Assembly: GCA_951406725.2 (NCBI GenBank)
Contig: OX597842.1
Span: 11,098,001-11,162,000 of the forward strand
From: Octopus vulgaris
Lineage: Eukaryota
Direction of reading: 5' to 3'
Length of the DNA stretch: 64,000 nucleotides
Under the pieces are notes generated by a model that saw nothing but the letters and a program-made list of their open reading frames with translations, searched no databases and was not told the DNA's origin. A program made the position numbers and the translations under genes. Below, piece after piece: positions 2,534 to 58,795 of this stretch. The number at the start of each line of letters is the position of its first letter. Positions within the stretch are counted from its first letter, which is position 1.

Positions 2534-3568
2534 AGAGCAAAACAAAAAACTGTTCTCAGTATTTAAGGAAGCTGACAAATACAAACAAGAAATCATACCA
2601 CCTAATAAACATGAAGAAGAAGAAGAAGATGGAGAAACAACAAAAGCTATAAAACAAATGAAATCCAAACTAAAAAATAGAACAGCAACGAACCATGATA
2701 AAACGATGGCAAGAAAAGCCCCTTCATGGTAAATACTGGACTAAACTAAACGCAAAAGAAATAGACAAAGAAAAATCCCAGCAATGGTTGAGAAGCTCAG
2801 GACTCAAAGCAGAGACAGAGGGATTTTTAATTGCAGCACAAGACCAAAGCCTCCCCACCAGAAATTACCAAAAACATGTAATGAAAAGAAATATTACAAG
2901 TAACTGCAGAATATGTGGAGATGGACAAGAAACAATAAATCATATTATCTCTAGCTGCCCAGTCCTGGCTAAGAAGGAATATATTCACAGACATGACAGA
3001 GTTGGAACCTACATACACTGGAAGCTGTGCCAACATTATGGAATAACAACAGAAAAAAGATGGTATAGGCACACACCAGAAAAGGTCACAGAAAACGAGA
3101 AAGCAAACATACTCTTGTATATGCCAATACACACAGATAGAGAAATTAAGGCCAACAGACCATATATAGTTGTCAGAGATCATGAAGAAAAAAAATGCTT
3201 TCTAATTGATGTATCAATACCGGCAGATGACAACGTGTCTCTAAAAGAAATGGAGAAACTCTCAAAATACAAAGACCTGGAAATAGAGGTAACTAGAATG
3301 TGGAATCTGGAAATAGAAACAATTCCTATCATAGAAGGTGCATTAGGCATGATAAAAAAATATTCAGACAAATACATAACAAAAACATCAGGACTTACAA
3401 ATACATATAACATACAGAAAATTGCACTACTAGACACTGCACACATCCTACGCAGAACACTTTCCATACAATAACCATCAGAGCATCACAACAAATCACA
3501 GCACATACCTAAGGCACACAGAGCTGTGCTCGGTAGTGAAGTGAAAGCACGCTATAAAAATAAAACTA

Positions 3569-4095: not shown

Positions 4096-4465
4096 ATATA
4101 TCACACCACATCACAACACCCCACACCACCCCACACGCACTAGTTCTGACCACTTCCTAGCAACCACACCGCACCATCATCTACACATCCACACACCATC
4201 AGACACACACACATTACAGACGCATACACTTACACACGCACACATCCACACATCAAAGTCACTAGCCTCTAACCGCACACACGCTTACACACTCTCACAT
4301 ACTCACACGCACGCGCACCTCCATTTTCGGATCACCAGTACTTTATTATCTCCACTTGTTCCTAGCTCTCCTGTCCAACTACCTTTTTCCAAACAGTCGC
4401 TAGGTTTGACCTCTAAATCCACAAGTTTTTTTTTCATTATTCTCTCTGTTTATTTCATCGTGTTC

Positions 4466-4527
4466 TTTTCTGCTGAAGAGCGTAGGCTCGAAATGTAAAA
4501 ACTTTCTCACCTTTCCCAGCGTCAAAC
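4466..4527 (+). ncRNA. Degenerate type I hammerhead-like motif (extra-nucleotide family)
   Basis: CTGCTGA-a-GAGC(gtag)GCTC-GAAA-tgt...gcg-TC; A6 is replaced by C; stem I is short (ttt/aaa). Confidence 0.5.
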
Positions 4528-4694
4528 TAATACACCTACCTGTTCATTATACACCTGTCTTCGTCTTTTGCTTTTCGGTAAATTTCAACTATACACACAC
4601 ACACACACATATATACATACATATATACATACATATATGATAGGTCGCTAGCCACTACACATTCTTTATTTTATCTCCTTGTTTCTTTGTGTTC

Positions 4695-4757
4695 TTTTCT
4701 GTGGAAGAGCATAGACTCAAAACGTTAAAGACTTTTTCTACTTCCTGAGCGTTAAAC
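4695..4757 (+). ncRNA. Degenerate hammerhead-like motif, paralog of 4466-4527
   Basis: CTGTGGA-a-GAGC(atag)ACTC-AAAA-cgtt...agcg-TT; several core mutations, so probably inactive. Confidence 0.4.
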
Positions 4758-4787
4758 TAATACATCTGCTTGTTGTTTATACATCAG

Positions 4788-4845
<58 letters not shown>

Positions 4846-4912
4846 CATATATGTATATATGTATGTATGTATACACACACACACACGCACACACACACAC
4901 ATACACACTCTC

Positions 4913-5000
4913 TTACTTTCCTGATGAGAAGATTGCATTTTACACCGTTTATTCCTTTGGAATAAAACCATGCTGTCTTCGAAACATATGTCGAAAGCAA
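4913..5000 (+). ncRNA. Type I hammerhead ribozyme with canonical core
   Basis: Stem I ctttc (4916-20) pairs with gaaag (4993-97). CTGATGA is at 4921-27. Stem II is gaagat...gtcttc with an inner hairpin tttattcc-ttt-ggaataaa. GAAA is at 4981-84, followed by palindromic stem III catatg and a GUC cleavage triplet ending at 4992. Confidence 0.8.
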
Positions 5001-5048
5001 AAGGATTTTATTAACATCTTCGTTCAACTCCATTTATTTATCACACAT

Positions 5049-5172
<124 letters not shown>

Positions 5173-5193
5173 GTATATATACATATACATATA

Positions 5194-5360
5194 TACGACG
5201 AGCTTCTTTCAGTTTCCATCTACCAAATCCACTCACAAGGCTTTGGTCGGCCCGAAGCTATAGTACAAAACGCTAACTCAAGGTGCCACGCAGTGGGACT
5301 GAACCCGGAACCATGCATGCTGGAAAGCCAGCTTCTTACCACACACCCACTCCAGCGCCT
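5194..5360 (-). mobile_element. SINE family A, head half
   Basis: Reverse complement of aggcgc.ggagtgg..gtgtggtaag..ggttcagtcccactgcgtggcacc..gaaactgaaagaagc.cgtcgta. Confidence 0.85.
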
Positions 5361-5399: not shown

Positions 5400-5890
5400 G
5401 TGAGGGGTTATATGGATAGCAGTTGAGAAGAATTAAGTGCAAATATGCAGAAAGGGCAAAACCTTGAAATAATTGAGAATGACATGGCAAAGATATTTTG
5501 GAATGAAATGGTTGGATGTGATCATGAAATTGGATATGGAAAGCCAGATATAATGATTTTGAATAAAGAGAAGAAGGCCCATTTAATCATAGATATTGCA
5601 TTCTCTGGTGATGAGAGAAATGGGAAGAAGAGAAGTGGGACTGATACGAAGATTGGAAATGGGAGATGAAAAGGGACGGGATCGTGGAAGAAGGTAAACG
5701 TTGAACCTGTTGTTGCTGTTGTTGTTGTTTGTGTTGTTTTTGTTATTGGCGTCTTGGGAGCTATAAGTACGAGGTTTTACAAACCGGATTGAAAAGGTAG
5801 GAGTCACTGCGAAAATAGAAAATACAGCATCGACAGAAAGTAGCGTTGGTTTCGAAATATAGAAATCCGTCGCAGAGTTCTTCAAATCCG
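5400..5890 (+). mobile_element. Degenerate RLE-type non-LTR retrotransposon 3' fragment (older relative of 2534-3572)
   Basis: Translation IIENDMAKIFW..HEIGYGKPDIMILNKEKKAHLIIDIAFSGDER parallels ENEKANIL..RPDIVV..CFLIDVSIPADD; a VIGVLG-like motif follows near 5745; frameshifted. Confidence 0.65.
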
Positions 5891-9509: not shown

Positions 9510-10078
9510 CCTTTTTGCTATAAGAACAAGGCCTGAAATGTGGAGGAAGGGGTCTAGTTGTTTACCTCGTCCACAGTGCATAACTGGTACTTTAATTAAT
9601 CGACCCCGAAAGGATAAAAGTAAAGTCGACCAGAGCGAAATTTGAATTCAGAACGAAAAGACAGACGAAATAGCTATTTCTTTACTACCCACAAGGGGCT
9701 AAACACAGAGAGGACAAACAAGGACAGACAAACGGATTAAGTCAATTACATCGACTCCAGGGCATAACTGGTACTTAATTTATCGACCCCGAAAGGATAA
9801 AAGGTAAAGTCGACCTGGGCAAAATTTGAACTCACAACGTAAAGACAGCCGAAATAGCTATTTCTTTACTACCCACAAGGGGCTAAACAAAGAGAGGACA
9901 AACAAGGACAGACAAACGGATTAAGTCGATTATATCGACCCCAGTGCGTAACTGGTACTTTTATTTATCGACCCCGAAAGGATAAAAGGTAAAGTCGACC
10001 TCGGCGGAATTTGAACTCAGAACGTAACGGCAGACGAAATACGGCTACGCATTTCGACCGGCGTGCTAATGTTTCTGC

Positions 10079-11669: not shown

Positions 11670-11838
11670 TTCCTCTGTCTTCCCTACTCGGGATCTTTCC
11701 TTCTCCTTTGTTTCCGACGATGAGCTCCGCTCGAAACGTTGAACCTTTCCCTTCTTTCCTGAGCATCAAATAATACTTTAATTGTTCCACGTCCTCGCGT
11801 TGCTGTGTTTTTTTCTGTGTTTTCTTGTTTGGATTAAC
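11670..11838 (+). mobile_element. Hammerhead-bearing element ending at a (TA)n tract; paralog of 55131-55296
   Basis: ttgttt-CCGACGA-t-GAGC(tcc)GCTC-GAAA-cgtt...agca-TC-aaataa at 11708-11773; ends ggattaac|tatata as in the second copy. Confidence 0.65.
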
Positions 11839-11877
11839 TATATATATATATATCTATATATATATATATATATATAA

Positions 11878-13930: not shown

Positions 13931-13970
<40 letters not shown>

Positions 13971-13971
<1 letters not shown>

Positions 13972-14098
13972 CGGGTAGGTTTACGAAAATAAACAAAAGA
14001 CGAAGGCAGGTGGAGTACAAACAAACAATGTATTGGTATGGCGCTCAGGAATAGAATTGGTCTTTTACGTTTCGAGCCTACGCTCTTCGACAGAAACA
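13971..14098 (-). mobile_element. Hammerhead-like element, paralog of 4466-4590
   Basis: Minus strand: ttt-CTGTCGA-a-GAGC(gtag)GCTC-GAAA-cgt...ttcctgagcg-CC...cacctgccttcgtcttttg, ending at (TA)n. Confidence 0.55.
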
Positions 14099-14164
14099 TA
14101 CACACATATATGTAGATATATGTGTATATGTATATACATGTGTGCGTGTGTGTGCATATATACT

Positions 14165-18322: not shown

Positions 18323-19690
18323 TTTCTACTCTAAGCACAATGCCCACAATGGGTGGAGGGAAGTACCAGTCGATTACATCGACCCTAGCACGCAACTGGT
18401 ACATAATTTATCGAACCCGAAAGGAAGGAGGGCAAAGTCGACGCCGTCGGAATTTGAACTCAGAATGTAAAGACAGACGAATTACCTATGTCTTTACTAC
18501 CCAACAAGGGGCTAAACACACAGAGGACAAACAAGGACAGCCAAACAGATCAAGTCGATTATATCGACCCCAGTGCGTAACTGGTACTTAACTTATCGAC
18601 CCCAAAAAGATGAAAGGCAAAGTTGACCTCGGCGGAATTTGAACTCAGAACGTAGCGGCAGACGAAATACCGGTTTCTTTACTACCCACAAGAGGATAAA
18701 CACAGAGAGGACAAACAAGGACAGACAAACGGATTAAGTCGATTATATCGACCCCAGTGCGTAACTGGTACTTATTTTAGTTTATCGACCTGAAACCGAA
18801 AGGTAGACGAAATACCGGTTTCTTTACTACACAAGAGGATAAACACAGAGAGGGGACAATGTCGACTGGTACTTAGTTTATTGAAACCCGACGCCGTCGT
18901 AATTTGAACTCAGAATGTAAAGACAGACGAATTACTTATGTCTTTACTACCCACAAGGGCTAAACACAGAGAGGACAAACAAGGACAGACAAATGGATTA
19001 AGGCGATTATATCGACCCAGTGCGGAACTGGTACTTAATTTATCGACCCCGAAAGGATGAAAGGCAAAGTTGACCATGGCGGAATTTGAACTCAGAACGT
19101 AGCGGGATACGAAATACCGCTAAGCATTTCACCCGGCGTGCTAACGTTTCTTATTCCTTTATTACCCACAAGGGCTAAACACATAGGGGACAAACAAGGA
19201 CAGACAAAAGGCTTAAGTCGATTACATCGACCCCAGTGATTCACTGGTACTTAATTTTCGACTCCGAAAGGATGAAAGGCAAAGTCGATCTCGGCGGAAT
19301 TTGAACTCAGATCGTAACGGCAGACGAAATACCTATTTCTTTACTACCCACAAGGGGCTAAACACAGAGAGGACGAACAAGGACAGAGAAAAGGCTTAAG
19401 TCGATTACATCGACCTTCAGTAATTCACTGGTACTTAATTTATCGACCCCGAAAGGATGAAAGGCAAAGTCGATCTCGGCGGAATTTGAACTCAGATCGT
19501 AACGGCAGACGAAATACCGCTAAGCATTTCGCCCGGCGTGCTAACACAGAGAGGCCTTGAACAATCTACTATAATAATACTCTTAAAGTGACCTTCAGTA
19601 ATTCACTGGTAACTTAATTTCATCGACCCATGAAAGGATGAAAGGCAAAGTCGATCTCGGCGGAATTTGAACTTGACAGATCGTAACGGA
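18323..19690 (-). repeat. SINE family B tandem array (~7-8 units, some truncated)
   Basis: Repeated aatttgaactcaga..agacgaa.tacc..tttctttactacccaca..gacaaacaaggacagac blocks. Confidence 0.9.
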
Positions 19691-22421: not shown

Positions 22422-22982
22422 AATGTCAGGCTCATGAGGGCCGATTATTTCTCGGGCCATGGCAGGCTCACCGAGGGCCGTCTTTCTCGGGCCATGGCAG
22501 GCTCATGAGGGCCGATTCTTTCTCGGGCGTATGGCAGGCTCATAAGGGCCGGATTCTTTCTCGGGCCATGGCAGGCTCATTGAGGGCCGGATTATTTCTC
22601 GGGCCATGGCAGGCTCGTGAGGGCCGGGGTCTTTCACGGGCCATGGCAGGCTCATGATGGCCGATTCTTTCTCGGGCCATGGCAGGCTCATGAGGGCCGA
22701 TTCTTTCACGGGCCATGGCAGGCTCATTGAGGGCCGGATTCTTTCTCGAGCCATGGCAGGCTCATTGAGGGCCGGATTCTTTCACGGGCCATGGCAGGCT
22801 CATGAGGGCCGATTCTTTCTCGGGCCATGGCAGGCTCATTGAGGGCCGGATTCTTTCACGGGCCATGGCAGGCTCATGAGGGCCGATTCTTTCTCGGGCC
22901 ATGTCAGGCTCATGAGGGCCGATTCTTTCTCGGGCCATGGCAGGCTCATGAGGGCCGGATTCTTTCTCGAGCCATGGCAGGT
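22422..22982 (-). repeat. GC-rich minisatellite (~15 x 35-37 bp) continuous with the 3' tail of SINE family D
   Basis: Unit ggccatggcaggctcat(t)gagggcc(g)gattctttc(t/a)cg; the last unit runs into gccatggcaggttaatgagaaccggtttcccgg. Confidence 0.85.
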
Positions 22983-23186: not shown

Positions 23187-24144
23187 ATGCTTTTGCACAC
23201 TAGGCAGAAGGCACGATATTTTAGAGGAGGGGGCCAGTCGATTATATCGACCCCAGTGCGTAACTGGTACTTATTTGATCGATCCCGAAAGGATGAAAGG
23301 CAAAGTCGACCTCGGCGGAATTTGAACTCAGAACGTAGCGGCAGACGAAATACCTATTTCTTTACTACCCACGAGGGGCTAAACACAGAGAGAACAGACA
23401 AGGACAGACAAGGGGATTAAGTCGATTATATTGAGCCCAGTGCGTAACTGGTACTTATTTGATCGACCCCGAAAGGATGAAAGGTAAAGTCGACCTCGGC
23501 GGAATTTGAACTCAGACCGTAGCGGCAGACGAAATACCTCTTTCTTTACTACCCACAAGGGGCTAAGCACAGAGAGGACAAACAAGGAACAGACAAGGGG
23601 ATTAAGTCGATTACATCGACCCCAGTGCGTAACTGGTACTTAATTTAATCGACCCCAGAAAGGATGAAAGGCAAAGTCGACCATCGGCGGAATTTGAACT
23701 CAGAACCGTAGCGGCAGACGAAATACCTATTTCTTTACTACCCACAAGGGGCTAAACACAGAAGGGACAAACAAGGACAGACAAGGGGATTAAGTCGATT
23801 ATATCAACCCCAGTGCGTAACTGGTACTTAATTTATCAACCCCGAAACGATGAAAGGCAAAGTCGACCTCGGCGGAATTTGAACTCAGAACGTAACGACA
23901 GACGAAATACCAATTTCTTTACTACCCTCAAGGGGCTAAACACAGAAGGGACAAACAAGGACAGACAAGGGGATTAAGTCGATTATATCGACCCCAGTGC
24001 GTAACTGGTACTTATTTAATCGATCCCGAAACGATGAATGGCAAAGTTGACCTCGGCGGAATTTGAACTCAGAATATAATGGCAGACGAAATACCGCTAA
24101 GCATTTCGCCCGGCGTGCTAACGTTTCTGCCAGCTCGCCGCCTT
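23187..24144 (-). repeat. SINE family B with 5 tandem ~185-bp units
   Basis: gaactcaga at ~23325, 23509, 23697, 23881 and 24065; a single complete head (aaggcggcgagctggcagaaacgttagcacgccgggcg) at the right end. Confidence 0.9.
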
Positions 24145-25990: not shown

Positions 25991-26012
25991 TAATAATATT
26001 AATAATAATAAT

Positions 26013-26447
26013 ACACAGATAGAGAAATTAAGGCAAATAGGCCGGATATAGTTGTCAGAGATCACCAAGAAATATATTGCTTTCTAATCGATGTATCAAT
26101 ACCAACAGATGACAATTGTTTCTGTAAAAGAAACGGAGTAACTACAAAGACCTGGAAATAGAGGTAGAACGAATGTGGAATCTAAAAAACAGAAACAATT
26201 CCTATCATAGTAGGCGCATTAGGTATGATAAAAAATATTCAGACAAATACATAACAAAAACACGTGAACAAACAGGTATATATAACATAGAGCAAATTGC
26301 ACTACTAGGCACTGCACACATCCTACGCAGAACACTTTCCATACAATAACCATCAGAGCATCACAACAAATCACAACACATACCCAAGGCACACAGAGCT
26401 GCACTCGGTAGTGAAGTGAAAGCACACTATAAAAATAAAACTACTGA
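26013..26447 (+). mobile_element. Second 5'-truncated copy of the R4/Dong-like element, within (AAT)n
   Basis: Colinear with 3129-3572, including the 3' UTR ..gtgaagtgaaagcac.ctataaaaataaaactactgaataataat; frameshifted. Confidence 0.85.
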
Positions 26448-34183: not shown

Positions 34184-37100
34184 GTGGAGGCGCAATGGCC
34201 CAGTGGTTAGGGCAGCGGACTCGCGGTCATAGGATCGCGGTTTCGATTCCCAGACCGGGCGATGTGAGTGTTTATTGAGCGAAAATACCTAAAGCTCCAC
34301 GAGGTTCCGGCAGGGGTTGGTGGTGATCCCTGCTGTACTCTTTCACCACAACCTTCTCTCACTCTTACTTCCTGTTTCTGTTGTACCTGTATTTCAAAGG
34401 GCCGGCCTTGTCACTCTCTGTGTCACGCTGAATATCCCCGAGAACTACGTTAAGGGTACACGTGTCTGTGGAGTGCTCAGCCACTTACACGTTAATTTCA
34501 CGAGCAGGCTGTTCCGTTGATTCGGATCAACCGGAACCCTCATCGTCGTAACTGATGGAGTGCTCCTGCAGGGGGTGGTGGTGATCCCTGCTGTACTCTT
34601 TCACCACAACTTTCTCTCACTCTTACTTCCTGTTTCTGTTGTACCTGTATTTCAAGGGGCCGGCCTTGTCACTCTCTGTGTCACGCTGAATATCCCCGAG
34701 AACTACGTTAAGGGTACACGTGTCTGTGGAGTGCTCAGCCAATTACACGTTAATTTCACGAGCAGGCTGTTCCGTTGATTCAGATCAACCGGAACCCTCA
34801 TCGTCGTAACTGACGGAGTGCTCCTGCAGGGGGTGGTGGTGATCCCTGCTGTACTCTTTCACCACAACTTTCTCTCACTCTTACTTCCTGTTTCTGTTGT
34901 ACCTGTATTTCAAAGGGCCGGCCTTGTCACTCTCTGTGTCACGCTGAATATCCCCGAGAACTACGTTAAGGGTACACGTGTCTGTGGAGTGCTCAGCCAC
35001 TTACACGTTAATTTCACGAGCAGGCTGTTCCGTTGATTCGGATCAACCGGAACCCTCATCGTCGTAACTGACGGAGTGCTCCTGCAGGGGGTGGTGGTGA
35101 TCCCTGCTGTACTCTTTCACCACAACTTTCTCTCACTCTTACTTCCTGTTTCTGTTGTACCTGTATTTCAAGGGGCCGGCCTTGTCACTCTCTGTGTCAC
35201 GCTGAATATCCCCGAGAACTACGTTAAGGGTACACGTGTCTGTGGAGTGCTCAGCCACTTACACGTTAATTTCACGAGCAGGCTGTTCCGTTGATTCAGA
35301 TCAACCGGAACCCTCATCGTCGTAACCGACGGAGTGCTCCAGCAGGGGATGGTGGTGATCCCTGCTGTACTCTTTCACCACAACTTTCTCTCACTCTTAC
35401 TTCCTGTTTCTGTTGTACCTGTATTTCAAGGGACCGGCCTTGTCACTCTCTGTGTCACGCTGAATATCCCCGAGAACTACGTTAAGGGTACACGTGTCTG
35501 TGGAGTGCTCAGCCACTTACACGTTAATTTCACGAGCAGGCTGTTCCGTTGATTCGGATCAACCGGAACCCTCATCGTCGTAACTGACGGAGTGCTCCTG
35601 CAGGGGATTGGTGGTGATCCCTGCTGTACTCTTTCACCACAACTTTCTCTCACTCTTACTTCCTGTTTCTGTTGTACCTGTATTTCAAAGGGCCGGCCTT
35701 GTCACTCTCTGTGTCACGCTGAATATCCCCGAGAACTACGTTAAGGGTACACGTGTCTGTGGAGTGCTCAGCCACTTACACGTTAATTTCACGAGCAGGC
35801 TGTTCCGTTGATTCGGATCAACCGGAACCCTCGTCGTCGTAACTGACGGAGTGCTCCTGCAGGGCGTGGTGGTGATCCCTGCTGTACTCTTTCACCACAA
35901 CTTTCTCTCACTCTTACTTCCTGTTTCTGTTGTACCTGTATTTCAAGGGGCCGGCCTTGTCACTCTCTGTGTCACGCTGAATATCCCCGAGAACTACGTT
36001 AAGGGTACACGTGTCTGTGGAGTGCTCAGCCACTTACACGTTAATTTCACGAGCAGGCTGTTCCGTTGATTCGGATCAACCGGAACCCTCATCGTCGTAA
36101 CCGACGGAGTGCTCCTGCAGGGGATGGTGGTGATCCCTGCTGTACTCTTTCACCACAACTTTCTCTCACTCTTACTTCCTGTTTCTGTTGTACCTGTATT
36201 TCAAGGGACCGGCCTTGTCACTCTCTGTGTCACGCTGAATATCCCCGAGAACTACGTTAAGGGTACACGTGTCTGTGGAGTGCTCAGCCACTTACACGTT
36301 AATTTCACGAGCAGGCTGTTCCGTTGATTCGGATCAACCGGAACCCTCATCGTCGTAACCGACGGAGTGCTCCTGCAGGGGATTGTGGTGATCCCTGCTG
36401 TACTCTTTCACCACAACATTCTCTCACTCTTACTTCCTGTTTCTGTTGTACCTGTATTTCAAAGGGCCGGCCTTGTCACTCTCTGTGTCACGCTGAATAT
36501 CCCCGAGAACTACGTTAAGGGTACACGTGTCTGTGGAGTGCTCAGCCACTTACACGTTAATTTCACGAGCAGGCTGTTCCGTTGATTCGGATCAACCGGA
36601 ACCCTCATCGTCGTAACCGACGGAGTGCTCCTGCAGGGCGTGGTGGTGATCCCTGCTGTACTCTTTCACCACAACTTTCTCTCACTCTTACTTCCTGTTT
36701 CTGTTGTACCTGTATTTCAAAGGGCCGGCCTTGTCACTCTCTGTGTCACGCTGAATATCCCCGAGAACTACGTTAAGGGTACACGTGTCTGTGGAGTGCT
36801 CAGCCACTTACACGTTAATTTCACGAGCAGGCTGTTCCGTTGATTCGGATCAACCTGGAACCCTCATCGTCGTAACCGACGGAGTGCTCCTGCAGGGGGT
36901 GGTGGTGATCCCTGCTGTACTCTTTCACCACAACTTTCTCTCACTCTTACTTCCTGTTTCTGTTGTACCTGTATTTCAAAGGGGCCGGCCTTGTCACTCT
37001 CTGTGTCACGCTGAATATCCCCGAGAACTACGTTAAGGGTACACGTGTCTGTGGAGTGCTCAGCCACTTACACGTTAATTTCACGAGCAGGCTGTTCCGT

Positions 37101-38445
37101 TGATTCGGATCAACCGGAATCCTCATCGTCGTAACTGACGGAGTGCTCCTGCAGGGGGTGGTGGTGATCCCTGCTGTACTCTTTCACCACAACTTTCTCT
37201 CACTCTTACTTCCTGTTTCTGTTGTACCTGTATTTCAAGGGGCCGGCCTTGTCACTCTCTGTGTCACGCTGAATATCCCCGAGAACTACGTTAAGGGTAC
37301 ACGTGTCTGTGGAGTGCTCAGCCACTTACACGTTAATTTCACGAGCAGGCTGTTCCGTTGATTCGGATCAACCGGAACCCTCATCGTCGTAACCGACGGA
37401 GTGCTCCTGCAGGGGATGGTGGTGATCCCTGCTGTACTCTTTCACCACAACTTTCTCTCACTCTTACTTCCTGTTTCTGTTGTACCTGTATTTCAAAGGG
37501 CCGGCCTTGTCACTCTCTGTGTCACGCTGAATATCCCCGGGAACTACGTTAAGGGTACACGTGTCTGTGGAGTGCTCAGCCACTTACACGTTAATTTCAC
37601 GAGCAGGCTGTTCCGTTGATTCGGATCAACCGGAATCCTCATCGTCGTAACTGATGGAGTGCTCCTGCAGGGGGTGGTGGTGATCCCTGCTGTACTCTTT
37701 CACCACAACTTTCTCTCACTCTTACTTCCTGTTTCTGTTGTACCTGTATTTCAAAGGGGCCGGCCTTGTCACTCTCTGTGTCACGCTGAATATCCCCGAG
37801 AACTACGTTAAGGGTACACGTGTCTGTGGAGTGCTCAGCCACTTACACGTTAATTTCACGAGCAGGCTGTTCCGTTGATTCGGATCAACCAGAACCCTCG
37901 TCGTCGTAACTGACGGAGTGCTCCTGCAGGGGGTGGTGGTGATCCCTGCTGTACTCTTTCACCACAACTTTCTCTCACTCTTACTTCCTGTTTCTGTTGT
38001 ACCTGTATTTCAAAGGGCCGGCCTTGTCCCTCTCTGTGTCACGCTGAATATCCCCGGGAACTACGTTAAGGGTACACGTGTCTGTGGAGTGCTCAGCCAC
38101 TTACACGTTAATTTCACGAGCAGTCTGTTCCGTTGATTCGGATCAACCGGAACCCTCGTCGTCGTAACCGACGGAGTGCTCCTGCAGGGGATGGTGGTGA
38201 TCCCTGCTGTACTCTTTCACCACAACTTTCTCTCACTCTTTCTTCCTGTTTCTGTTGTAGCTGTATTTCAAGGGGCCGGCCTTGTCACTCTCTGTGTCAC
38301 GCTGAATATCCCCGAGAACTACGTTAAGGGTACACGTGTCTGTGGAGTACTCAGCCACTTACTTACACGTTAATTTCACGAGCAGGCTGTTCCGTTGATC
38401 GGATCAACCGGAACCCTCGTCGTCGTAACCGACGGAGTGCTTCCA
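34184..38445 (+). repeat. SINE family C with its ~258-bp body tandemly amplified 16 times
   Basis: One tRNA-like head (tggcccagtgg..gtttcgattcc) at 34184 and 15 junctions gtgctcc.gcaggg at 34560, 34818 ... 38176. Normal tail ggagtgcttcca. Embedded in a (CTA)n tract with ccactactact on both sides. Confidence 0.95.
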
Positions 38446-57809: not shown

Positions 57810-58795
57810 TGTATGCCAATATATTAATGTATACCAATGTATCCAAACCATACCAATGTATGCAAAAGATATCTGTGTATGCCAGTGTATTACAATGTAT
57901 ACGAATGTATGTCAGTTTATACTAATGGTGCGGATGTATGCCAATATATGCCAATGTATACCAATGTATACCAATGTATGCCAATGTATGCCAATGTATG
58001 TCAAAGTCTATCACTGTGTGCCAATATATGCCAGCGTATGCCAATGTATGCCAATGTATACCAGTGTATGCCAAACTATACGAATGTAAGTCAGTTTATA
58101 CCGATGGTGCGGATGTATGCAAATATGTGCCACTGTATACCAATGTATACCAATGTATGCCAACCTGTACCAACGTATACCTATATATATTAATGTATGT
58201 CAATGTATGCCAACGTATACCTATGTATATTAATGTATGCCAATGTATGCCACTGTATGTCAATGTATGTCAATATATGCCAACGTATGCCAATGTATAC
58301 CTATTTCTTTACTACCCACAAGGGGCTAAACACAGAGGGGACAAACAAGGACAGACAAACGGATTAGGTCGATTACATCGACCCCAGTGCGTAAATGGTA
58401 TTTAATTTATCGACCCCGAAAGGATGAAAGACAAGGTTGATCTCGGCGGGATTTGAACTCACAACGTAACGGCAGACGAATTACCTATTTCTTTACTACC
58501 CACAAGGGGCTAAACACAGAGGGGACAAACAACGACAGACATAGGTATTAAGTCGATTACATCGACCCCAGTGCGTAACTGGTACTTAATTTATCGACCC
58601 CGAATGGATGAAAGGCAAAGTCGACCTCGGCGGAATTTGAACTCACAACGTAACGGCAGACGAAATACCGCTAAGCATTTTGCCCGGCGTGCTAACGTTT
58701 CTGCCAGTTCACCGCCTTATCTACCAGCTCGCCGCCTTATACCAATGTATACCAACGTATGTCAATGCATGCGAATGTATGCCAATGTATATACT
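57810..58795. repeat. Degenerate 10-bp minisatellite (gtat[g/a]ccaat)n interrupted by SINE B
   Basis: Unit seen at 57810-58300 and resuming at 58740-58795. Confidence 0.85.
58298..58737 (-). mobile_element. SINE family B, two internal-type units plus head
   Basis: tacctatttctttactacccacaagggg.. at 58298 and ~58482. Confidence 0.85.

Follow-up and report, generated by a model that had tools for sequence, protein, structure and literature searches.

The window analysed here, a stretch of 64,000 nucleotides (64 kb) from Octopus vulgaris, contains an island of about 135 bp lying between microsatellites, and this locus raises the question of whether the island holds a real hammerhead ribozyme and, if it does, of what larger unit that ribozyme is a part. 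An earlier note had read the island as an intact hammerhead, probably associated with Penelope-like elements (PLEs), and as a tiny mobile unit that could cut any plus-strand host transcript. The hammerhead itself stands, and so do the microsatellite flanks, which are confirmed by the repeat scan (Table 1). An independent unit that cuts host transcripts is unlikely, and the island is better explained as the truncated 3' end of a multi-copy family.

A type I hammerhead with a long second stem

The sequence and a descriptor scan reveal a complete type I hammerhead on the plus strand of the island, with all core nucleotides and three stems, of which stem I is open-ended. The G10.1-C11.1 pair is formed by G4928 and C4980, and G4928 follows directly on A4927, with no extra base after A9. 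Stem I comprises 5 bp (4916-4920/4993-4997) and can be extended in register to 13 positions, with mismatches at 4915/4998, 4912/5001 and 4908/5005 and a U-G pair at 4909/5004. Stem II consists of a 6-bp segment (4928-4933/4975-4980), a U.U, a 4-bp segment (4935-4938/4970-4973), an asymmetric loop and an inner hairpin. The core, the five extendable pairs of stem I, the long stem II and its perfect 8-bp inner hairpin are all as the earlier note had described them, and the palindromic stem III is longer than claimed (8 nt instead of 6). The island holds a genuine type I hammerhead, whose self-cleavage is a prediction. Its sole unusual trait is the long, segmented stem II of 53 nt, which hides the motif from standard searches.

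This is the only full-core motif on both strands of the window. In local dinucleotide-block shuffles (n = 200) the motif arose in none of the 200 sequences when stems I, II and III were held to at least 5, 5 and 3, and in 5 of 200 at the laxest setting. Rfam gives no match in the whole window at gathering thresholds, and no hammerhead is among the 53 weak matches over 4300-5200, where the microRNA matches are microsatellite artefacts. A search with just the island gives 5 matches, headed by RF00163 Hammerhead_1 (18.4 bits, E 0.034), with all core positions aligned over the whole model. The hammerhead model thus ranks first, but its score is under the gathering cut-off of 34, and 49 nt of the window copy's stem II are left unmodelled. 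Since a stem II of this length falls below the Rfam cut-off and outside a published core search with a 7-17-nt spacer, hammerhead counts in such genomes are probably underestimates. For the giant squid, 235 Rfam hammerheads have been reported (PMC6962438).

Table 1. Features of the island and its flanks (positions in the window)
Feature	Position	Strand	Basis or remark
Left (CA)n/(TA)n microsatellite	4789-4908	.	Sequence, repeat scan
Probable end of a Penelope-like element: 3'-terminal piece of a multi-copy repeat family, truncated at its 5' end	4908-5042	+	Contig counts, loose ends
Stem I, 5' strand (4916-4920 in the 5 pairs nearest the core; mismatched extension out to 4908)	4908-4920	+	
Core CUGAUGA (C3-A9), C3 = 4921	4921-4927	+	Descriptor scan, Rfam alignment
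Stem II, 53 nt	4928-4980	+	Segmented fold
Inner hairpin, perfect 8 bp (4948-4955/4959-4966), 3-nt loop	4948-4966	+	Pair probability about 0.9; loop length varies among paralogs
Core GAAA (G12-A15.1)	4981-4984	+	No variant at 2% or more in family contigs
Stem III, 8-nt palindrome (monomer 2 bp + tetraloop; dimer 8-bp intermolecular helix)	4984-4991	+	Predicted pairing
Predicted cleavage site, 3' of C17	4992	+	From hammerhead numbering
Stem I, 3' strand	4993-5005	+	C4998 and G5004 are minority letters in the family
Tail to family 3' end, 36-44 nt	5006-5041	+	Contig ends; 5016-5021 can mispair with the stem II 5' strand in the window copy
Right microsatellite, (CA)n followed by (TA)n; likely target site	5043-5195	.	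Sequence, repeat scan

A dispersed family with a fixed 3' end

Public sequencing runs show that the island belongs to a multi-copy family. Part of it occurs in 22 of the 24 runs listed and at least half of its words in six; four runs were examined, with X1 and X5 from organism A, X2 from organism B and X6 from organism C (coded organisms), and runs of organisms D and E, with fewer than 5 words each, were left out of the counts. Contigs that fit at 80% or more, in a comparison spanning 141 nt, number 1048 in X1, 580 in X2, 334 in X6 and 87 in X5, where summed contig depth is not equated with copy number.

Among the matches listed, shared sequence continues upstream of 4908-4909 in 12 and 9 contigs of X1, 9 of X2 and 4 of X5 (agreement 0.82-0.90), with loose ends that begin before 4908-4917 and paralog sequence visible to 30 nt. 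Behind 5040-5041, the listed matches end in variable TA-rich sequence (37 and 19 contigs of X1, 25 of X2, 11 of X6 and 4 of X5; agreement 0.61-0.73). Because the family runs on upstream of 4908 and ends at about 5041, before (TA)n, the window copy is a 5'-truncated 3' end and not a tiny self-contained mobile unit. Contig counts and loose ends together describe a dispersed, multi-copy family with 5'-truncation and a fixed 3' end, as in the 3' end of a PLE. A search of the window with up to 3 mismatches allowed did not find the upstream family motif; a longer copy interrupted by a nearby microsatellite is therefore discarded as an explanation of the island. The 64-kb window holds this single copy, with no second or tandem one, and one contig contains an opposite-strand joint. 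A coding role for the island was discarded on the grounds that ATG-initiated frames stop inside it and that 1-nt indels occur among paralogs.

Pattern scans were also run on other collections. Viral contigs gave no relatives, and metagenome contigs gave one match, to a bacterial stretch without hammerhead stems, which is attributed to chance. The gene downstream of that match is presumably triosephosphate-isomerase-like.

Variation among the copies

Variant rows cover only 4939-5011, a range that starts and stops 31 nt short of the island's ends, and 28 of the 73 visible positions vary at 2% or more in some run. No variant row falls on the 16 positions formed by the 3' strand of stem II, GAAA and the stem III pairs (hypergeometric P 1.2e-4, for a block picked post hoc), and the 8 core positions alone are likewise free of variants (P 0.016). 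Measured against the partner base in the window, variant rows at paired positions keep or make a pair in 8 cases and break one in 10; for common variants at paired positions, pairing is kept in 8 of 9 and broken in one. The retention of pairing is suggestive and not proof, because most of the pair-keeping variants are A-to-G changes giving U-G, which are easily obtained. The earlier note had named paralogs with compensatory stem changes as a test; the paralogs are many and their common variants mostly keep pairs, but within the visible range all of the changes are one-sided. Both stem III variants (at 4988, and a 2-nt loss at 4986) retain a self-complementary duplex. Overall, the pattern is suggestive of selection on the hammerhead structure in the family.

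The window copy differs from its family in stem I. In the three DNA-like runs, position 4998 is U in 99.2-99.7% of summed depth, and the window copy has C there; at 5004, A makes up 90-96% of depth, and the window copy has G. Among the matches listed, the loose-end consensus has C opposite the common G5002, where the window has U4911. A C4911/G5002 pair would fit a U-A/C-G swap, and it would also fit a family stem I of 13 bp that is nearly perfect.

None of the runs that contain the family is catalogued as RNA. A separate observation concerns X5, a run guessed to be RNA, where U at 4998 accounts for 57% of depth; in the DNA-like runs it exceeds 99%, a hint that X5 is dominated by a few atypical copies. 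This signal is not tied to the window locus because the window's other minority letters are rare in X5.

Predicted folding of monomer and dimer

Secondary-structure prediction gives the island an ordinary overall folding energy (z -0.65). In the model, stem III has a pair probability of 0.01-0.03 in the monomer and of 0.75-0.82 in a two-copy dimer, where it would form an 8-bp intermolecular helix. With its full tail, the window copy reaches predicted probabilities of only 0.49 for stem I and 0.58 for stem II, since two alternative helices (4928-4933 with 5016-5021, and 4978-4982 with 4991-4995) make up a competing misfold, taken from MFE structures. Its dimer MFE likewise has a slipped stem I, at -45.2 versus -43.2 for the double hammerhead (2 kcal/mol lower). 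Substituting three family-majority letters raises the modelled stems I and II to 0.99 and 0.96 and turns the dimer MFE into an exact double hammerhead, and a window copy ended at 5016 or earlier is predicted to fold both stems at about 0.9. The window copy therefore appears to have drifted, with the rare C4998 breaking stem I and a model in which it misfolds about half the time. The word intact fits the core but not stem I, with its rare changes and its predicted misfold.

The core, the family shape and the predicted dimer fold support a genuine type I hammerhead that is probably Penelope-associated and built for the dimer. However, a hammerhead whose stem III is 2 bp plus tetraloop is capable of weak cleavage in monomer form (for the axolotl HHR_Amex2, 22% in 1 h; PMC7229834; Cervera and De la Pena 2020). 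The bases around stem III (4977-4997) also make up a wider quasi-palindrome, which could adopt an inactive hairpin or a longer self-duplex (-14.2 kcal/mol) and may possibly serve as a built-in off state.

Surroundings of the island

Short-period repeats make up 22% of the window, so that microsatellite flanks at one locus say little. An RT or GIY-YIG domain is absent from all 229 stop-free high-complexity ORF pieces of at least 50 aa in the window; the sole above-cut-off domain match among these pieces is a zf-RVT in a LINE 3' fragment (2674-3333), and the window has no Pfam-detectable host exon.

LINE 3' fragments lie at 2674-3471, 5469-5615 and 26012-26346, all on the plus strand, with zf-RVT and with a 266-aa open frame in the first; we take them to carry a motif of restriction-like endonuclease type. 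A taxonomic look-up of the LINE fragment gave Eukaryota (Cnidaria, Mollusca). The island was considered as part of the fragments at 2674-3471 and 5469-5615 and was rejected as such, because a SINE-like repeat and microsatellites lie between. A SINE-like repeat of about 150 bp occupies 5196-5345 and about 20 other places at 72-93% identity, often in tandem with TA spacers. A second SINE-like unit, of 184 bp, forms short tandems at 9562-10041, 18368-18774, 23236-24095 and 58297-58669. Further arrays comprise a 391-bp unit at 1-1478 (3.8 copies, 86% match; no hammerhead motif), a GC-rich minisatellite at 22427-22981 (36-37-bp unit, about 15 copies) and a 258-bp unit at 34310-38441 (16 copies, 97% match, about 50% GC, 775-bp higher-order period), for which no hammerhead motif, Rfam or tRNA match was found.

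A second, min-HHR-like family is present in four copies, at 4425-4592, 4655-4790 and 11670-11845 on the plus strand and at 13960-14115 on the minus strand, with motifs at about 4470, 4700, 11715 and 14093 (minus). These have the min-HHR layout (extra base after A9, GAAA-CG-U-H), and the only one with A at core position 6 is the 11715 copy, where position 4 is C. Three copies stop at TA repeats about 100-120 nt downstream, and one is cut at stem I, like the island. They are probably the truncated ends of another Penelope-like family.

Origin of the island

We put at about 0.7 the probability that the island is the 3'-terminal ~135 bp of a Penelope-like family that targets TA microsatellites, either autonomous or a non-autonomous derivative, and most like the Hydra clade; perhaps half of that probability falls to a parent from the Hydra clade itself. 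Membership of the PLE superfamily is probable by analogy of architecture and target, and the second, min-HHR-type family in the window counts in its favour in repeating the pattern of a truncated tail in a microsatellite. For PLEs it is established that reverse transcription starts near the 3' end of the element RNA, with the copy made into a nicked, AT-rich target, and that it usually stops early, leaving 5'-truncated tails that hold only the hammerhead. The island would be such a tail, in keeping with a family that runs on upstream of 4908 and has its 3' end fixed at about 5041, in front of TA repeats. Within the tandem transcript of the parent, pairing of two hammerheads via the 8-nt palindrome is predicted to give a double hammerhead cut after C17, possibly with help from the element's protein. 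The ribozyme would have served that transcript, and the solitary window copy would be a passive, slightly decayed relic with its core intact, its stem I weakened and no partner nearby. In vivo, it probably cleaves little or not at all.

The main competitor, which we regard as unlikely, is that the island is a stray monomer of a non-LTR retrozyme, that is, of a short non-coding tandem family whose RNA is cut into unit-length circles and mobilised by PLE proteins. The core without an extra base and the stem III of 2 bp plus tetraloop match invertebrate retrozyme hammerheads, molluscs have such families (about 5000 copies in a mussel), and the island family is present in runs guessed to be RNA. 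Dispersed monomers are also common (bioRxiv 10.64898/2026.07.22.740005; Li, Clavereau and Pollet 2026). However, retrozymes are tandem (PMC7229834), and the window has no head-to-tail units of 150-450 bp that include the island; behind 5041, the matches listed lead in all four runs into heterogeneous TA repeat and not into a constant next unit; and stems I and II far exceed the canonical 6 and 4 bp. As retrozymes have themselves been proposed to derive from PLE ends (bioRxiv 10.64898/2026.07.22.740005), this alternative shades into the preferred one.

A bolder proposal is a long shot: the island would belong to a PLE hammerhead family of cephalopods that is very abundant, uncatalogued and unseen by standard descriptors, and whose conserved 53-nt stem II and ~13-bp stem I take the place of the usual loop-loop contact, perhaps by binding the element's protein. 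Its dispersed copies, co-transcribed with host genes, would pair in trans via their common palindrome and cut host pre-mRNAs in a dose-dependent manner. If such trans-dimers did cut host RNA, the family would matter much more.

Also improbable is the earlier picture of a self-contained ~135-bp mobile ribozyme that is still active and cuts host transcripts running through it. The core is intact, the island's first base is also that of the extended stem I, a copy ended at 5016 or earlier is predicted to fold well, and the axolotl ribozyme with a comparable stem III did cleave as a monomer. Against this, the family continues upstream of 4908, and the full-tail copy misfolds about half the time in the model, with stem III formed in 1-3%. 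Neither a partner copy nor a host gene was found in the window, so that cutting of host transcripts is unlikely. PLE hammerheads tested so far have been weak, monomer-inactive or protein-dependent: for PLE min-HHRs in vitro, monomers were inactive and multimers weak (PMC4209133; Cervera and De la Pena 2014), the Anolis PLE hammerhead cleaved only with protein and no RNA-seq ends were found at its cut site (PMC11167929), and one of nine Xenopus dimers was cleaved (bioRxiv 10.64898/2026.07.22.740005). The remaining notion, that the motif is a chance match or is kept here for some host function, is very improbable. In its favour, the Rfam score is below cut-off and the folding z-score unremarkable; against it, the shuffles largely refute chance, the family is high-copy with structure-keeping variants, and the window copy deviates from its family towards lower stability, which is what neutral decay would produce.

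If the island is the PLE end favoured here, its family is one more addition to the known catalogue of PLE hammerheads. The Anolis PLE endonuclease prefers AT-rich DNA, and cleavage proved dispensable for insertion in this one PLE reconstituted in vitro (PMC11167929); the clean predicted double hammerhead of the family majority would make a good substrate for asking what PLE hammerheads do. For Octopus vulgaris, the available part of one study reports recently active Penelope families and does not mention ribozymes (PMC13282606). No description of the island family was found in the literature or in the available supplement of PMC8557442, and Repbase or Dfam may hold it.

Comparison with known systems

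The short palindromic stem III, which the earlier note had taken for a Penelope signature, is a general trait of metazoan type I hammerheads, those of retrozymes included (PMC4209133). With the metazoan min-HHRs, the island shares a U-rich 5' flank, an AU-rich 3' flank, G10.1-C11.1, the palindromic 15.2-16.2/loop 3 and the occurrence as mostly solitary copies from truncated elements, in line with the finding that PLE hammerheads are mostly solitary remnants of such elements (PMC4209133). In contrast to min-HHRs, which have an extra base between A9 and G10.1 and a vestigial stem III, it lacks that base, has a real stem III of 8 nt and has much longer stems I and II; the available part of the min-HHR survey contains no cephalopod row (PMC4209133). 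With the non-LTR retrozymes it has in common the canonical type I core, the stem III of 2 bp plus tetraloop, the high copy number and the occurrence in molluscs, but it shows no tandem unit, its 3' flank is a TA repeat and it lacks the canonical loop 1/loop 2 geometry.

Among PLEs, a precedent for the long arm is PLE-X1_sMoe of Selaginella, whose stem II plus loop is also 53 nt (9+35+9; PMC8557442 File S2). This element is, however, from a plant, endonuclease-less and targeted to 28S rDNA, with the extra base present and a sequence unrelated to the island. An origin from Naiad elements was rejected: Naiad_Ovul is tagged HHR_half_core and targets (TA)n, but by eye the island resembles neither its 3' end nor that of any of four other cephalopod Naiads, as given in the available source. 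Five short island motifs had no match to any consensus in the available supplement of PMC8557442, in which line breaks can hide matches.

The closest likeness is to the Hydra clade (e.g. Hydra-2_Amil, Penelope-1_NV, Penelope-1_SK and Hydra-1_Obim). In this clade, 26 of 27 families prefer (TA)n (PMC8557442 Files S1, S2; Craig et al. 2021), the hammerhead lies close to the 3' end, its stem III is a palindrome of 9-10 nt, the extra base is missing in several families, and one family comes from Octopus bimaculoides (PMC8557442). The proteins of the clade have a C-terminal GIY-YIG without CCHH and a DKT motif (bioRxiv 2021.04.23.441226). Tails after stem I measure 26-351 nt in a comparison that omits Penelope-18_Hma, whose listed motif sits at the 5' end; the island's tail is 36-44 nt, and as those of the clade are at most 50 nt in 10 of 24 families and longer in 14 (PMC8557442), tail length is weak evidence. 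The hammerhead row of Hydra-1_Obim differs by eye from the island, which is likened to the clade by architecture and target. Stem II in the clade is a short hairpin, in contrast to the three-segmented 53 nt of the island; the island's palindrome is 8 nt instead of 9-10; and its stem I, probably of about 13 bp, is unlike the rows of the clade. However, the island family and the Hydra clade share the combination of a type I hammerhead on the sense strand near the 3' end, a (TA)n target, a palindromic stem III with about 4 pairable bases per side and, often in the clade, the absence of an extra base after A9.
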